This document shows, in pieces, positions 9,403 through 21,604 of a stretch of DNA of 64,000 nucleotides. Every line of letters begins with the position of its first letter. The stretch's first letter is position 1. The position numbers and the translations under genes are program-made. Origin of the DNA: an uncultured Acidimicrobiales bacterium (GTDB taxonomy: Bacteria > Actinomycetota > Acidimicrobiia > Acidimicrobiales > SHLQ01); the NCBI GenBank assembly GCA_938002955.1, contig CALLAA010000050.1, positions 7,177 through 71,176 on the forward strand. The letters run 5' to 3'. The notes beneath the pieces are model-generated. The model searched no databases. It had not been told where the DNA came from and was given only the letters and a program-made list of their open reading frames with translations.

Positions 9403-10104
9403 TCAGCGCCGATCGGTCTTGCGCCAACGAGCCGAGGCTGGTTCGCGCGACGTCCGGCGCGCTTCTCGAGCACGACGGCGAGTTACTGGCCCCGGTGGTG
9501 GGGTTGGTCGACCAACGCTGGCCTGCTTCCACACCTTGAAGAACCTCTGGATTGCGGTGATTGCGGTCAAGGCCAACATCACCCAAAGGACACCGAGCAG
9601 CAGTGTCTCGTTGAACGCTCCGAGAAACAGACCGAACCCGAGCGCAATAAATCGCTCAGCACGCTCCATGAGCCCGCCCTTGGCATCGAACCCGAGGGAC
9701 TCAGCTTTGGCCCGCTGGTAGCTGATCATGATCGCGAGGCCCATGATCGCGACGGGAAGCATGTGGATCTGCCCATCGCGAGTCACGGACAGGTGCCAGG
9801 CAACGCCGCAGAACAACATGATGTCGGTGAGTCGATCAGATACCGAGTCGAAGTATGCGCCGCGCATCGATGACGTGCCCGACGCCTTCGCGATCGCTCC
9901 GTCGAGCAGATCGGGAAGCCCGGTCAGGACCATCAGCACGAGCCCGGCGGCGAGGTTGCCCGAGCCAATGACGACTGCGGCAACCGCGGACATCGCGATG
10001 CCGACGAGGGTCATCACATCTGCGGTGATTCCCATGTTGACCAAGGCGGCGCCTACGGGCTGCACTCCCCTGTCGATCTGTTCTCTCATATTTCCATCGA
10101 ACAT
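9403..10104 (-). CDS. pgsA: CDP-alcohol phosphatidyltransferase (phosphatidylinositol phosphate synthase)
   Basis: DLLDGAIAK...GAYFDSVSDR signature; GGAGG SD. Confidence 0.9.
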   Translation of the reverse strand: MFDGNMREQIDRGVQPVGAALVNMGITADVMTLVGIAMSAVAAVVIGSGNLAAGLVLMVLTGLPDLLDGAIAKASGTSSMRGAYFDSVSDRLTDIMLFCGVAWHLSVTRDGQIHMLPVAIMGLAIMISYQRAKAESLGFDAKGGLMERAERFIALGFGLFLGAFNETLLLGVLWVMLALTAITAIQRFFKVWKQASVGRPTPPPGPVTRRRAREARRTSREPASARWRKTDRR

Positions 10105-10217
10105 GGGAATCCTCCCTGCCTATGTTCGACTAAAGGCTAGCCGTGAAATGCGGCTGCCGACATCTGTGCGACGCGGACTCACTACGAGCGTCCAACGACG
10201 CCGGGTAGCATGACCGT

Positions 10218-10712
10218 ATGGGAGATCGATACGACAGCCTTCAGCCCGCCAGCCTCATTGCGTCCATGACGTCGATGCCACGCCGGTGGAAGGACGCAAT
10301 GCGAGTTGCCCCACCGAAGAGCATCGATGACTACTTCACCGTCGATGGTGAACACGGCTCGGCGGCCGAGCACGTCGGTGCCGTGATCGCTCAGCTGTCG
10401 ACGCTCAGCGATGCGATCCGGACGACCAGCTACAACGTGCCGGAGCCACTGACGAGCGCCGTCGTTGCGGCTGCGTCAAACACCGGCTCAGGCCCGTGGC
10501 CCGAATCGGCTTCGGACGGGCTGTCCGAACTCACGAGTCTCTTCGAAACGCTCACCGGCCAGCTGCAACAGCTCAACCCCCGAGACTGGAATAAGTCGGC
10601 CGACGCTGGTTCGACGATGCTCACCGTGTTGGCACTTGCCCAGGGTGCGAGCCGGGTCGCCGCCGACCGCCTAGCGATCGTCGAGCGCACCATTCGCACC
10701 CTGGCCGACTAG
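10218..10712 (+). CDS. Hypothetical protein, possibly DinB-like fold
   Basis: 164 aa helical ORF, SAAEHV segment; leaderless TAGCAT-6nt-ATG. Confidence 0.6.
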   Translation: MGDRYDSLQPASLIASMTSMPRRWKDAMRVAPPKSIDDYFTVDGEHGSAAEHVGAVIAQLSTLSDAIRTTSYNVPEPLTSAVVAAASNTGSGPWPESASDGLSELTSLFETLTGQLQQLNPRDWNKSADAGSTMLTVLALAQGASRVAADRLAIVERTIRTLAD

Positions 10713-10715
10713 CAG

Positions 10716-11246
10716 CTAGTCGGCAGGTTCGAGTGCAGCCCAATCTTCGGGATTGTCCTCGACGAGGATCGTGATCACTTCGCCATCGACTCCGTCGACC
10801 ATGGCGAACCCGCGGCTCTTTGGCGGAGACTCGTTGGAGTACAACAAAATGCGCCATGTCGGACGGCTGCGAAGTCCGCGCCAGGCCATCTGCGCCGACG
10901 CGTGCCCGACCGGGAAGCCAACAGCCTTGGTCGCCTCGACCAAGGCGTCTTGCTCATCGACGGCCAAGTTCCAGCCGCCCTGGATGTGATAGAGCCCAAC
11001 GGCGATCAGTCCGAGTGCGCCAAGCGCGAGCCCGCCGTTCATCAACGGAGACGTATCGGCTCGTCCGAGGAACCACAGCACCAAGAGGACCCCGCCGATC
11101 ACCAAATACAACACGCCGGGAATCCGCCGTTTGCTATTGTTCGGGAAGAGGTACGGCCCAACGAAGTCCGCAGCGTTCAGGTCGTCTGGAAGTTCATCGA
11201 CGTATTCGTCGTCATCAACCATTGGATCGACATCTTCGGTAGCCAC
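10716..11246 (-). CDS. Hypothetical membrane protein
   Basis: Two TM segments; leaderless TATCAT-6nt-GTG. Confidence 0.75.
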   Translation of the reverse strand: MATEDVDPMVDDDEYVDELPDDLNAADFVGPYLFPNNSKRRIPGVLYLVIGGVLLVLWFLGRADTSPLMNGGLALGALGLIAVGLYHIQGGWNLAVDEQDALVEATKAVGFPVGHASAQMAWRGLRSRPTWRILLYSNESPPKSRGFAMVDGVDGEVITILVEDNPEDWAALEPAD

Positions 11247-11323
11247 AACGAGATGATACGCCCGAGGAGCCTGAGCGACACAGCTGTGCGATGAGGGTCA
11301 CCTCAACATCTGCGTCACGCAAA

Positions 11324-11869
11324 CTATTGGGCGATCAGCCCTTCGACATCGGCCCGCAACGAGCCATACCCACTCGTGCGCCACGTACCGTCATCGTTGA
11401 TGTAGACGTACGTCCGCTGACGGGTAACCCCGAAACGGTCCCAGACGTCGTCAGCATTGTCGAGGTGTGGGAATCCTTCGACGCCGGTGTCCTCGATGAA
11501 CTCCCGCATCGCTGCCGCGTCCGCGAGTCCTGGCACACCGATAAACGTGACCTCGTCGCCAAATTCTTCCTGGACTCCTACGACCGTAGGAGCTTCACGG
11601 CGTCAAAACGGTCACCACGGCGCCCAGAACCAGAGCACGACATCTTCACCTTGCAGCGTGGCCAGATCGACCGTCGTGCCGTCGAGTGATGCAAATTCTC
11701 CCGAGAGCGTTTCCTCGGCAGGTACAGCGGCTGTGTCATCTGCGGCAGCGGTATCGCTCGCAGTCGTCGTTCCGCCGCAGGCGGATGCGACGAAGCCCAT
11801 GATCAGCGCAATCGCCAGGAGGCGCCGGAACAGCGGCCCTGAACCTGTCGAACGCTGGGGTGCATGCAT
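11324..11869 (-). CDS. TlpA/DsbE-like thioredoxin-fold lipoprotein with UxxU (two selenocysteines)
   Basis: One frame joins the two track ORFs: VVLWFWAPW-TGA-PF-TGA-RREAPTV...VTFIGV...VWDRFGVTRQRTYVYI; TGAs at 11612-11614 and 11603-11605; ASAC lipobox; leaderless TATTCT-6nt-ATG. Confidence 0.88.
11574..11593 (-). promoter_or_regulatory. Putative bacterial SECIS element
   Basis: GCTCCTAC-GGTC-GTAGGAGT hairpin; loop starts with G at +18 from the second UGA and +27 from the first. Confidence 0.75.
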
Positions 11870-11942
11870 GGCACCAGAATAGGTCCGGGCCAATCGAACG
11901 AGCGGTTCTCCAGCCAATTCTAACGAGTCACTTACCGTCTGT

Positions 11943-12512
11943 TCATTTCGTTGGCCAGGCCGCCCGAAGCCGCGTCCACGAATCACCGAGACTCTCGGGG
12001 AGCACCCGGGCCTCCGCAATACTCGTCATGAAGTTCGTGTCGCCGCTCCAGCGGGGCAGGACGTGCACATGTATGTGATCCGGCACGCCGGCCCCGGACG
12101 CTCGTCCCAGGTTCATACCCATGTTCACCCCATCGGGCTGGTACTCGGCTTTGACCGCTTCGATCCCCATGCGCACGCCAGCGAACAGCTCGATGTACGT
12201 CTCCTCATCCAAGTCTTCGAGGTTGACGGCCGCCTTCTTGGGCAGCACCATCAGATGTCCTGAGGTGTATGGGTAGGCGTTGAGCAACGCAAAGCAATGC
12301 TCGCCACGCCACAACACATAGGTCACCGAGTCGTCGAGGCCCGACTGCTCGATCCCCTCGAACAACGTCAATCCCTCGACATGTCCCTTCGACCGCTCAT
12401 CGTCGTCGGCCAGAATGTAGGGAATTCGCCAACCCGACCACAGACGCGGCATCTGATCACCGCCGGCGAGCGTGTTGTCGAGCGGTGAGTCGCCGGCGTT
12501 AGGACTTTGCAT
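11943..12512 (-). CDS. HIT family protein (Ap4A phosphorylase-like)
   Basis: LNAYPYTSGHLMVLP, HIHVHVLPRW; follows thrS; start could be 12452. Confidence 0.9.
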   Translation of the reverse strand: MQSPNAGDSPLDNTLAGGDQMPRLWSGWRIPYILADDDERSKGHVEGLTLFEGIEQSGLDDSVTYVLWRGEHCFALLNAYPYTSGHLMVLPKKAAVNLEDLDEETYIELFAGVRMGIEAVKAEYQPDGVNMGMNLGRASGAGVPDHIHVHVLPRWSGDTNFMTSIAEARVLPESLGDSWTRLRAAWPTK

Positions 12513-14463
12513 CGACTTCGGCGGCGAGACGTGCGATGAAATCCTCGACGCTCACGTCGCGGTCGACCTCTTGCACACCGCGCTCATTGACGCCAACCGT
12601 CGAGTTTGCGACGTCGTCGTCGCCGACGACGAGCACGTACGGAGTCTTTTCGACCTTGCCCTTGCGAACGCGTTTGCCGAGCGGGTCGGTGGCCGGGTCG
12701 ATCTCGACGCGGAATCCAGATTCCTTGAACTTCGCCATGATCTCGTATGCGTAGTCCTCGTGCGCCTCAGCAACCGGAAGCACCTTGATCTGGACCGGCG
12801 CAAGCCAGGCCGGGAAGTTACCGGCGTAATGCTCGATGAGCACGCCAAAGAACCGCTCGATCGATCCCATGAGGGCACGATGGATCATGACCGGGCGTTT
12901 GCGCTCGCCGTCCTGGGCCACGTACTCGAGGTCGAACCGCTCCGGCAGGTTGAAGTCGAGCTGAATAGTCGACAGTTGCCACGCACGACCGATCGCATCG
13001 CGGACGTCGACATCGATCTTGGGCCCGTAGAACGCGCCGCCGCCCTCGTCGACGATGTAGTCGAGGCCCTGCTTCTCGAGCGCTGCCTTGAGCCCAGCCG
13101 TCGCAGAGTCCCAGATCTCATCGTCGCCCACCGACTTTTCGACAGGGCGAGTCGACAGCTTTGCCTGGAAATCGTCAAAGCCAAATGCTCGCAGCACGGA
13201 CAGGACGAAGTCGAGCAACGAGGCAAGCTCGTCCTCGATCATCTCTCGTGTGCAGAAGATATGACTGTCGTCCTGGGTGAACCCGCGGCTCCGCATGAGC
13301 CCGTGTACAGCACCAGAAAGCTCGTAGCGGTACACGGTTCCGAGCTCGAAGATGCGCTTGGGCAGGTCGCGATAGGAACGCTGATCGCTCTTGTAGATCA
13401 TCACGTGGAACGGGCAGTTCATAGGCTTCGGGTAGTACGTGGCGCCGTCCATCTCCATGGGCGGATACATACCGTCGGCGTAGAAATCGAGGTGTCCCGA
13501 CGTCTCCCACAGCACCGACTTCGCAATGTGGGGGCTAAACGCAAAGTCATAGCCGCCATGCTCATGGCGGTCGCGGCTGTAGTCCTCCATGATCTTGCGG
13601 ATCAACGCGCCCTTGGGATGCCAGACGGACAACCCCGGACCGAGTTCTTCGGGCCAGGACACGAGGTCCATCTCTTGGGCAAGACGACGGTGGTCGCGCT
13701 TTTCGGCCTCTTCGAGACGGTGGAGGTGCGCTTTCAGGTCCTTCTTGTTGGCCCATGCCGTGCCATAGATGCGTTGGAGCATCGGGCGCTTCTCGTCGCC
13801 GCGCCAGTAGGCGCCCGCGACCTTCATGAGCTTGAAATGCTCGAGACGTCCGGTACTCGGGACGTGCGGGCCAGTGCACATGTCGAGGAACGTTTCGGAG
13901 TTCCGGTAGTAGCTGACAACGTCTCCGCTGACCTCGCCAGCGTCCTCGCTCGCAGCCGCCCCGCTCGCCACGTTCTGAATGATCTCGAGCTTGTAGGGCT
14001 CGTCCTTGAATAGATCGAGCGCCTCGTCGACCGACACCTCGTGACGCTCAAAGGGCTGATCGGCCTTGACCAGCTCCTTCATTCGCGCCTCGATCGCGCC
14101 GAGGTCGTCGTCCGACAACGTCTTGCCATCGGGAAGATCAAAGTCGTAATAGAAGCCGTGTTCAATCGGCGGACCGATCGCAAAGCGAGCGCCCGGGTGG
14201 AGATCCAAGATTGCCTGGGCCATGAGATGAGCCGTCGAGTGACGGATCGTGTGCAAGCCCTCGTCGTCGGATCCCGTAACTAACGCAACCGACGCCCCGT
14301 CGTCGAGCGGAACGTCCAGGTCGACCTCGACACCATCGACAACGGCGATCAACGCAGCCTTGGCAAGACCCGGACCGATATCGGCCGCAAGGTCGGCGGC
14401 AGTCGCCCCAGAGGACAACTCACGCGTTGATCCATCGGGCAGGGTGACATTTACAGCGCTCAT
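12499..14463 (-). CDS. thrS: Threonine--tRNA ligase
   Basis: TGS domain, HSTAH, GAYWRG, KPMNCP, GAFYGPKID. Confidence 0.98.
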   Translation of the reverse strand: MSAVNVTLPDGSTRELSSGATAADLAADIGPGLAKAALIAVVDGVEVDLDVPLDDGASVALVTGSDDEGLHTIRHSTAHLMAQAILDLHPGARFAIGPPIEHGFYYDFDLPDGKTLSDDDLGAIEARMKELVKADQPFERHEVSVDEALDLFKDEPYKLEIIQNVASGAAASEDAGEVSGDVVSYYRNSETFLDMCTGPHVPSTGRLEHFKLMKVAGAYWRGDEKRPMLQRIYGTAWANKKDLKAHLHRLEEAEKRDHRRLAQEMDLVSWPEELGPGLSVWHPKGALIRKIMEDYSRDRHEHGGYDFAFSPHIAKSVLWETSGHLDFYADGMYPPMEMDGATYYPKPMNCPFHVMIYKSDQRSYRDLPKRIFELGTVYRYELSGAVHGLMRSRGFTQDDSHIFCTREMIEDELASLLDFVLSVLRAFGFDDFQAKLSTRPVEKSVGDDEIWDSATAGLKAALEKQGLDYIVDEGGGAFYGPKIDVDVRDAIGRAWQLSTIQLDFNLPERFDLEYVAQDGERKRPVMIHRALMGSIERFFGVLIEHYAGNFPAWLAPVQIKVLPVAEAHEDYAYEIMAKFKESGFRVEIDPATDPLGKRVRKGKVEKTPYVLVVGDDDVANSTVGVNERGVQEVDRDVSVEDFIARLAAEVDAKS

Positions 14464-20947: not shown

Positions 20948-21604
20948 TCAGTGGTCGAGTGCGCAGATCGTTGGCCGGATGACCATGAGCGCACCGGCGT
21001 CGACGCGAATCGAGGCGTGTTCGCGAAGGAACTCGTTGCTGACGCCCCGGGTGCTGGCCTTGTCGAGTGTTTCTGCGTCGAGCTCCCACCGAAGGCCGGT
21101 CGTCGAGACGCCACCGGCGTCGCCAAATCGTGGCAGCAGCGACACGAGGTCACCGGGTTCACCGGTGAGGTCGATAGCCGCATGGGTGTCGGCGTGGAGG
21201 ACCGTTGCCCATCCGGCCATCGTGTGCACGTCGACACGAGCCGAGCGCTGGCCGCACAGCGTGGCCCAGTTGCCAAGTTCGTGATCGAGCCGACCGCCGT
21301 CTACCCCAACCGCAACGATTCGATCCACCCCGGTGTGTTCGGCGCGTTCGAGTGCGAGCTCGAGGTCGGTGGCATCTTTGTCGGCTGGGTGTTCGAGCAC
21401 GTCGGCGCCCTCGGCGCGTGCCCATGCCAGGTCGCCGTCGGAGGCAGAGTCGAGGTCTCCGACGACGAAGTGGATCGGGAGGCCGTGGGTACGGGCGATC
21501 CGAACACCGCCGTCGGCGGCGATAATCACCTCGGCTTGATCAGCCCCGTCGAGAAGCCGCTTATCGGGGATGGTGCCACCGACGAGAACGACTGCAAAGC
21601 TCAT
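20948..21604 (-). CDS. thiN: Thiamine diphosphokinase
   Basis: AADGG, VGDLDS, KDATDLELAL, GGRLDH, GVSNE. Confidence 0.93.
   Translation of the reverse strand: MSFAVVLVGGTIPDKRLLDGADQAEVIIAADGGVRIARTHGLPIHFVVGDLDSASDGDLAWARAEGADVLEHPADKDATDLELALERAEHTGVDRIVAVGVDGGRLDHELGNWATLCGQRSARVDVHTMAGWATVLHADTHAAIDLTGEPGDLVSLLPRFGDAGGVSTTGLRWELDAETLDKASTRGVSNEFLREHASIRVDAGALMVIRPTICALDH

Follow-up and report, generated by a model that had tools for sequence, protein, structure and literature searches.

The replacement of both cysteines of a CxxC motif by selenocysteine (Sec, U), each specified by an in-frame UGA, is known from described protein families, and the same motif is found here in a 64,000-nt stretch of DNA (hereafter the window; contig CALLAA010000050.1 of assembly GCA_938002955.1, an uncultured Acidimicrobiales bacterium), whose minus strand carries a predicted thioredoxin-fold gene with two UGAs and, directly behind them, one hairpin resembling a selenocysteine insertion sequence (SECIS). 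For SelL, the 2007 PNAS study of Shchedrina et al. reportedly placed the bacterial SECIS within the coding sequence, where its spacing was said to fit either UGA or the two together. The account given in PMC4989117 has a single SECIS of SelL acting on two UGAs that are two codons apart. A similar layout is reported for Group 4 [NiFeSe] hydrogenases with a UXXU motif (Front Microbiol 2026, PMC13582414), which bear two UGAs three codons apart and one predicted downstream SECIS; the authors raise the possibility that both UGAs are decoded under the single element. The catalogue entries of PMC13188914 and PMC9312934 list Prx-like thiol:disulfide oxidoreductase selenoproteins (PF00578) in UxxC and UxxU forms with one or two Sec, and a Redoxin family selenoprotein (PF08534) in the UxxC form among prokaryotic selenoproteomes. 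UxxU forms also figure in the ocean metagenome data of PMC2398784. Comparison of the window's gene with its relatives makes it likely, in our judgement, that the one hairpin serves both UGAs as the SECIS for Sec insertion. The elements concerned are the following:

11869..11324, minus strand: predicted selenoprotein gene of 181 codons and a TAG stop, whose two in-frame UGAs become U86 and U89 when TGA is translated as U
11614-11612, minus strand: UGA1 (U86), at the first Cys of the CxxC motif and aligned with Cys of homologues
11605-11603, minus strand: UGA2 (U89), at the second Cys of the CxxC motif and aligned with Cys of homologues
11593-11574, minus strand: candidate SECIS hairpin, with 5' arm GCUCCUAC at 11593-11586, loop GGUC at 11585-11582 and 3' arm GUAGGAGU at 11581-11574

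The frame runs from an ATG at 11869 to the TAG at 11326-11324 and is open once both TGA codons are counted as read through. The hairpin interval is interpretable on the minus strand only, where the sequence reads TGG TGA CCG TTT TGA CGC CGT GAA and then enters the hairpin, which begins 9 nt past UGA2. Its stem of 8 bp consists of seven Watson-Crick pairs and an outer G-U pair. The first G of the loop lies 27 nt after the A of UGA1 and 18 nt after the A of UGA2, leaving 26 and 17 nt, respectively, between codon and loop; counted with the U of the UGA as +1, the loop starts at +30 and +21. An earlier note on this DNA had described a 7-bp stem with an additional G-U pair and a GGTC loop at +27 and +18 inside the coding sequence, and both coordinates and pairs agree with it. 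The SECIS model of Zhang and Gladyshev (2005), in the form printed in the review PMC13188914, was applied by hand; it asks for a loop of 3-9 nt, a stem of 4-16 bp, a G in the first two loop positions, a UGA-loop spacing of 16-37 nt and an energy of at most -7.5 kcal/mol. For both UGAs the hairpin lies within every one of these bounds (loop 4 nt, stem 8 bp, G early in the loop, 26 and 17 nt, -11.3 kcal/mol), so that the earlier claim of two distances inside the usual range stands as well.

The 20-nt hairpin, folded alone, is exceptional (-11.3 kcal/mol, z = -4.55), with none of 200 shuffles folding as well, while the longer contexts are unexceptional (z of -0.64 for 55 nt and +0.30 for 71 nt) because GC-rich sequence folds anyway. 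Perfect stems of 8 or more pairs closing a GGTC loop are found at 58 sites of the genome (7.87 Mb of strand), which corresponds to about 1.6e-4 expected in any given 22-nt interval; this frequency is the sole figure retained from a scan that combined GGTC hairpins with open frames. Most of the 58 sites are not beside a plausible Sec codon, and terminators are one possibility for them. Rfam offers no matching family: at the gathering score the sole match in the window was a tRNA; at E <= 10 the sole match was a small RNA (sRNA) of 16 bits, judged to be a chance hit. It is by conservation and covariation across homologues that the hairpin is far beyond chance.

Homologues were collected by a read-through search of 41 genomes, namely the window's own, 24 others of the same genus and 16 from other families of the order. 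Matches with two TGAs numbered 26 and came from 19 of the genus's 25 genomes, whereas the 16 genomes of other families gave none; one-TGA and no-TGA paralogues were many. A scan of species-representative genomes added seven UxxU genes (from Acidimicrobiales/Actinomycetota metagenome-assembled genome records) and 73 CxxC homologues from other Actinomycetota. The UxxU copies are loci L017-L035, L047 and L074-L080. The hairpin was scored as present when a GGTC loop with at least 4 closing pairs stood at +30, counted from the first motif codon, and each distinct gene copy was counted once. By this measure it is present in 33/33 UxxU, 20/27 UxxC and 0/84 CxxC sequences. All 20 hairpin-bearing UxxC paralogues have their UGA at the first position and the hairpin at the same place (+30), and the seven UxxC genes that lack it there belong to other subgroups, of which at least the S-P-H-U-P-T-C type has a hairpin of its own at +19. 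A metagenome scan, whose pattern held only the coding of W-A-P-W-U-P-F-U and left the hairpin out, gave 17 matches; 15 were homologues (8 distinct sequences) and all 15 bear the hairpin. The other two (L156, L170) were non-homologous chance matches and were excluded.

One might argue that the hairpin is a by-product of conserved E-A-P-T-V-V residues rather than an RNA signal, with the TGAs simply read through or the gene decaying. The hairpin does lie in a conserved helix-coding stretch, R-x-E-A-P is conserved in CxxC homologues too, and the letters GGTC occur at the same place in 11 of the 84 CxxC homologues. However, none of these 11 has more than three closing pairs, and the CxxC homologue L041 keeps the A-P-T-V residues by other codons and has no hairpin. 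Moreover, the frame downstream of both UGAs is conserved (52-92% identity across 17 aligned copies), which speaks against decay. The stem itself bears further on the question. In the UxxU set of 33 sequences two closing pairs are, like the loop, invariant, and three pairs vary without ever being unpaired, as was also seen in an alignment of 25 sequences (A1). The commonest of the covarying pairs is C-G in 18 copies and U-A in 15, and the exchange is silent on both sides, falling on the third positions of a Pro codon (CCC/CCU) and a Val codon (GUG/GUA). A second pair is A-U in 26 copies and G-C in seven, an exchange that requires Thr->Ala and Val->Ala jointly, and a third is C-G in 28, U-A in three, G-C in one and U-G in one. 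The covariation score exceeded those of all 500 shuffles and of all slid controls. Parsimony on the family tree asks for at least 6 changes at the C-G/U-A pair, 3 at the A-U/G-C pair and 5 at the third pair, these counts being the parsimony minimum on a quick tree in which tandem copies may have exchanged sequence. Given this pattern, we regard the by-product explanation as very improbable.

We therefore read the hairpin as being under selection as an RNA structure in UGA-bearing genes only; L041 preserves the residues and not the structure. The earlier note had asked for covariation among UxxU homologues and loss in CxxC ones, and had named equal conservation in Cys-only homologues as one outcome that would tell against it; compensatory double changes at two to four stem pairs, together with 33/33 against 0/84, come out on its side. 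RNAalifold, run on 180 nt of the 33 UxxU sequences, found no other covarying hairpin, and no other was conserved within 150 nt; the hairpin fills the only stretch where a SECIS for UGA2 could lie. A small stem predicted around UGA1 consists of invariant codons, has no covariation and was not used. The proposal of the earlier note that one element may recode two UGAs is thus well supported by comparison, through the contrast between UxxU and CxxC genes, the covariation and the lack of a second element.

The genome has the means to decode Sec. The assembly comprises 3.93 Mb in 270 contigs (89.5% complete, 61.6% G+C) and contains a tRNA-Sec (64.5 bits, cut-off 47; called tRNA-SeC(tca) by ARAGORN) together with selB (278.7 bits, cut-off 242), selA (386.8, cut-off 267.9) and selD (263.3, cut-off 125), each above its family cut-off. 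Further genes with an in-frame TGA were sought by a six-frame codon-usage scan, which gave 61 candidates, and only those matching a known family were kept. Among these are a UGSC_fam member (152.2 bits, cut-off 125), a ResA-like WAxxUGC_long protein (479.3 bits, cut-off 300), a glutathione peroxidase (GPx), a Prx-like protein with W-U-P-Y-C, a PrdB-like protein and three more TlpA-like UxxC lipoproteins, of which the one on contig C54 came from the read-through search of homologues described above. The remaining candidates that were inspected proved to be ordinary gene ends (Rho/L31, ribonucleotide reductase subunits, SecA). Scans by GGTC hairpin plus open frame, by TAA/TAG frames filtered on third-position G+C (GC3) and by strict codon usage gave mostly shadow frames or missed the known gene, and were not counted. 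At least eight genes beyond the window's own, of the kinds just named, show a TGA at a redox position with a hairpin downstream, in what is a large selenoproteome for an actinobacterium:

C45:76348-76863, gene with redox-position TGA and downstream hairpin
C109:5317-5820, the same
C145:5577-6047, the same
C145:46661-47308, the same
C157:27984-28817, the same
C209:2907-3686, the same
C269:2253-3332, the same
C54:6186-6617, the same

Apart from these genes, TGA terminates ordinary ones, in the window as in the genome (for example 20948..21604 on the minus strand and a SecA-type C-terminus), and therefore the standard code with Sec decoding is taken to be in use. That UGA is instead a sense codon of another genetic code, or that the two TGAs are assembly errors, has nothing in its favour apart from the in-frame TGAs themselves. 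The sole tRNA-Trp has a CCA anticodon in a genome that is G+C-rich, and the same two codons, aligned with Cys, are again TGA in 26 or more genomes as well as in separate metagenomes, so we give this explanation practically no weight.

A more serious alternative is that the hairpin is the SECIS of UGA1 alone, and that UGA2 is passed by another route, whether by near-cognate reading as Trp or Cys (UGA followed by C being a weak context), by a Cys tRNA of the tRNA(ReC) kind or by insertion of Sec without a SECIS. All of the hairpin-bearing UxxC paralogues, as noted, have their UGA at the first position, and a gene with a lone UGA2 (CxxU, hairpin at +21 only) was not found in the family, the one regular-expression match to such a motif (L084) being an off-frame chance match that was dropped. 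PMC13582414 reports that UXXU genomes are richer in tRNA(ReC)-like genes, and cautions that UGAs of this sort may be decoded as Cys. Furthermore, the present genome is just 89.5% complete, and ARAGORN made two odd tRNA-like calls in it, an 80-nt tRNA-Cys(gca) at C65:165-244 with poor stems and a 94-nt call at C85:7867-7960 with a six-base anticodon loop. On the other hand, a single tRNA with a UCA anticodon was found in the genome, and the C65 and C85 calls, which have poor stems and do not match the tRNA-Sec model at E <= 0.001, are probably false. The second-position TGA persists in 33/33 UxxU and 15/15 metagenome copies, although TGC or TGG would give Cys or Trp without the cost of recoding; the first-position TGA is likewise found in all 33 UxxU and all 27 UxxC copies. 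As for distance, the predicted loop starts of SECIS elements elsewhere in the genome, taken from folding, are +19, +20, +23, +24, +25, +25, +30 and +30; both +21 and +30 fall within this range of +19 to +30, and +21 also lies within the span of +19 to +25 and within the 16-37 nt of the model as given in PMC13188914. On balance, we hold it unlikely that UGA2 is read independently of the hairpin.

Several points nonetheless weigh against a single hairpin serving both UGAs as their SECIS. Most orthologues have a C.A mismatch in the stem (27/33 are unpaired at that pair), repaired to U-A or C-G in a few copies and to G-C in one metagenome copy, and the usual form of the stem is thus a 4-bp upper part, a mismatch and then 2-3 further pairs. 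By hand count, 21 of the 33 UxxU 20-nt hairpins reach -7.5 kcal/mol, and the other 12 (-5.0 to -7.4 kcal/mol) are weaker than the model demands. The spacing range of the genome is built on our own folding predictions, the sequences compared are related, so that the counts overstate their independence, and the trees described below are midpoint-rooted only. Experiments in Escherichia coli reportedly found tight spacing between UGA and hairpin, which, if it applied here, would tell against one element serving codons 9 nt apart, and the missing CxxU gene, already mentioned, counts here too.

On the reading in which one hairpin acts as a bacterial SECIS for both codons, SelB would bind the GGUC loop by its C-terminal domain and deliver Sec-tRNA(Sec) to the UGA that occupies the A site of the ribosome. 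With UGA1 in that site the hairpin begins 18-19 nt downstream, and with UGA2 9-10 nt downstream. UGA1 would be read across 26 nt, a spacing that is routine for the UxxC paralogues of the lineage, which show, on sequence comparison, that a distance of 18-19 nt is workable there. Three codons on, UGA2 would be read from the same hairpin, now 17 nt off, and a second SelB-tRNA complex would have to reload within those three codons. Sec rather than Cys or Trp would then be inserted at UGA2, and the two residues may form a diselenide.

The protein encoded has the active-site motif W-F-W-A-P-W-U-P-F-U, and three further features can be placed on it:

11869..11777, minus strand: putative N-terminal signal peptide with a lipobox-like end V-A-S-A-C (Cys31), read from the translation by eye
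11692..11363, minus strand: thioredoxin-fold (Redoxin) domain, residues 60-169, by match to Pfam PF08534
11416-11414, minus strand: Arg152, aligned by HMMER (to DsbF and MPT53) with the cis-proline of thioredoxin-fold proteins (Q-P-A to Q-R-T)

Homologues also carry an A-C-G/S pattern at the lipobox. The product passes three Pfam models, Redoxin (PF08534, 53.1 bits, cut-off 26.6), AhpC-TSA (PF00578, 46.9 bits, cut-off 26) and Thioredoxin (35.4 bits, above its cut-off), so that a PF00578/PF08534 domain is combined with U-P-F-U at the place of CxxC; no NCBIfam model reaches its cut-off. The closest solved structures are Mycobacterium tuberculosis DsbF (3ios, E = 8.3e-24) and MPT53/DsbE (1lu4, E = 2.7e-22), aligned over about 113 residues, a similarity that spans the domain and includes the W-x-P-W-C-x-x-C active site of the DsbE/DsbF (MPT53) type with U in place of C. 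With each UGA aligned to a Cys of homologues and the frame beyond them conserved, the gene is, as far as its sequence tells, an intact selenoprotein gene. Its product is an extracytoplasmic lipoprotein, a DsbE/DsbF-like thiol-disulfide oxidoreductase whose two redox cysteines are probably replaced by Sec to give a diselenide/diselenol couple. Public gene calls end its relatives at the first UGA (P0017 and P0019-P0021 stop at W-A-P-W). Concerning the neighbourhood (9403-14463), a HIT-family gene with thrS lies upstream, and a hypothetical protein without a family match (probably a membrane protein, by eye) and a CDP-alcohol phosphatidyltransferase lie downstream; the gene order thrS-HIT-pgsA is known from mycobacteria. 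No redox partner such as CcdA or DsbD is encoded in this interval.

The UxxU genes form a single clade, with an ultrafast bootstrap of 99 and an SH-like approximate likelihood ratio (SH-aLRT) of 100 in a tree of 61 rows and an SH-aLRT of 100 in a tree of 136 rows, and the neighbours of this clade are the UxxC paralogues that carry the same hairpin, likewise at +30. Most simply, a UxxC gene already equipped with its SECIS gained UGA2 when its second Cys codon mutated, the order of events being inferred. UGA2 has then persisted while the genus radiated and, later, as tandem copies arose. Such tandem duplications of the UxxU gene are seen in six relatives (L024, L026, L028, L030, L032 and L034, in genomes G006, G018, G010, G024, G012 and G007). 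The S-P-H-U-P-T-C paralogue adjoins the UxxU gene or genes at L026, L028 and L033, and its SECIS differs (+19 in the copy of the window's genome).

In thioredoxin-fold proteins, Q-P-A holds the cis-proline opposite the active site. The 33 UxxU copies have QRT (29), QST (2), QGT (1) or RQT (1) at this site and never Pro, the window's gene having Arg152, and the UxxC copies have Q-P-x in 21 of 22. Within the lineage, then, the loss of the cis-proline coincides with the second Sec in the sequences compared; it is not unique to UxxU proteins, as Q-S-x is also found in a distant CxxC group (Streptomyces and relatives). To tie the loss to a stable diselenide or to metal binding is speculative. Taken together, the family may represent a natural series in which one SECIS has come to serve either one UGA (the 20 UxxC genes) or two that lie 9 nt apart (the 33 UxxU genes, of one origin), and in which, if both residues are Sec, SelB works at 26 and at 17 nt and reloads within three codons, the missing cis-proline hinting at a changed chemistry; we put this wider view forward tentatively, and would not yet bet on it as a whole. 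If both are Sec, the geometry of SelB would be looser than that established for E. coli, and if the chemistry has indeed changed, the protein might hold a stable diselenide, or a selenolate pair binding a metal or metalloid, rather than take part in ordinary disulfide exchange.

Compared with known proteins, the product shares W-F-W-x-P-W with both mycobacterial lipoproteins, DsbF (W-F-W-A-P-W-C-P-T-C) and MPT53/DsbE (W-F-W-T-P-W-C-P-F-C), and the C-P-F-C of MPT53 corresponds to U-P-F-U here. It differs from them in that they have Cys rather than Sec and keep Q-P-A where the product has Q-R-T. With the NCBIfam family NF041054 (ResA-like WAxxUGC) it has in common a ResA/TlpA-like fold and a Sec following W-A-x-x, but its score of 38 bits is below the cut-off of 300 and it carries U-P-F-U where the family has U-G-C, which places it outside that family. 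The product, probably a diselenide oxidoreductase of the cell envelope and one lacking the usual cis-proline, would lend itself to the study of selenium redox chemistry.

As a SECIS, the hairpin can be set beside that of E. coli fdhF, which has a GGUC loop and a 4-bp upper stem broken by a bulge and starts 11 nt after its UGA. The GGUC loop and, in most orthologues, the 4-bp upper stem followed by an interruption are like those of fdhF, and the 9-10 nt between UGA2 and the hairpin are close to those 11 nt; the 17 nt from UGA2 to the loop likewise come near the fdhF spacing, and the 26 nt from UGA1 to the loop are longer. With the bacterial consensus as presented in PMC13188914 it shares a loop starting with GG, an upper stem no shorter than 4 bp and a site in the coding region 16-37 nt past the UGA, and it differs in that one hairpin trails two UGAs, the 17 nt of the second being near the lower limit of the model. 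SelL, too, has a thioredoxin fold and U-x-x-U in place of CxxC, and the likeness is confined to this motif and the single-SECIS arrangement; SelL is described as a Prx-like protein with a diselenide, whereas the product here is nearest to the mycobacterial DsbF/DsbE lipoproteins. The Prx-like and Redoxin entries of the selenoproteome catalogues are closer in domain, since the product passes both Pfam models and has the listed UxxU; the comparison is by description, and the representative given in the catalogue is of the Geobacter type. The UXXU hydrogenases (PMC13582414) are unrelated proteins in which Sec is a metal ligand, and the accessible text of that paper contains no series of paralogues with one and with two UGAs on the same hairpin.

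The idea itself is thus known, as UxxU proteins have been catalogued and single-SECIS use was proposed for SelL in 2007 and for the hydrogenases in 2026, and the present genes add a further family. Recognizing them corrects the annotation of the gene set, whose members stand in public protein sets as fragments ending at the first UGA. They bear also on Sec decoding in bacteria in general, namely on how strict the spacing between UGA and SECIS must be and on whether a single element is able to serve two UGAs in rapid succession. Compared with the earlier cases, the comparative support is better than usual, as one genus holds UxxU, UxxC and CxxC paralogues, which together amount to a ready-made series of mutants.

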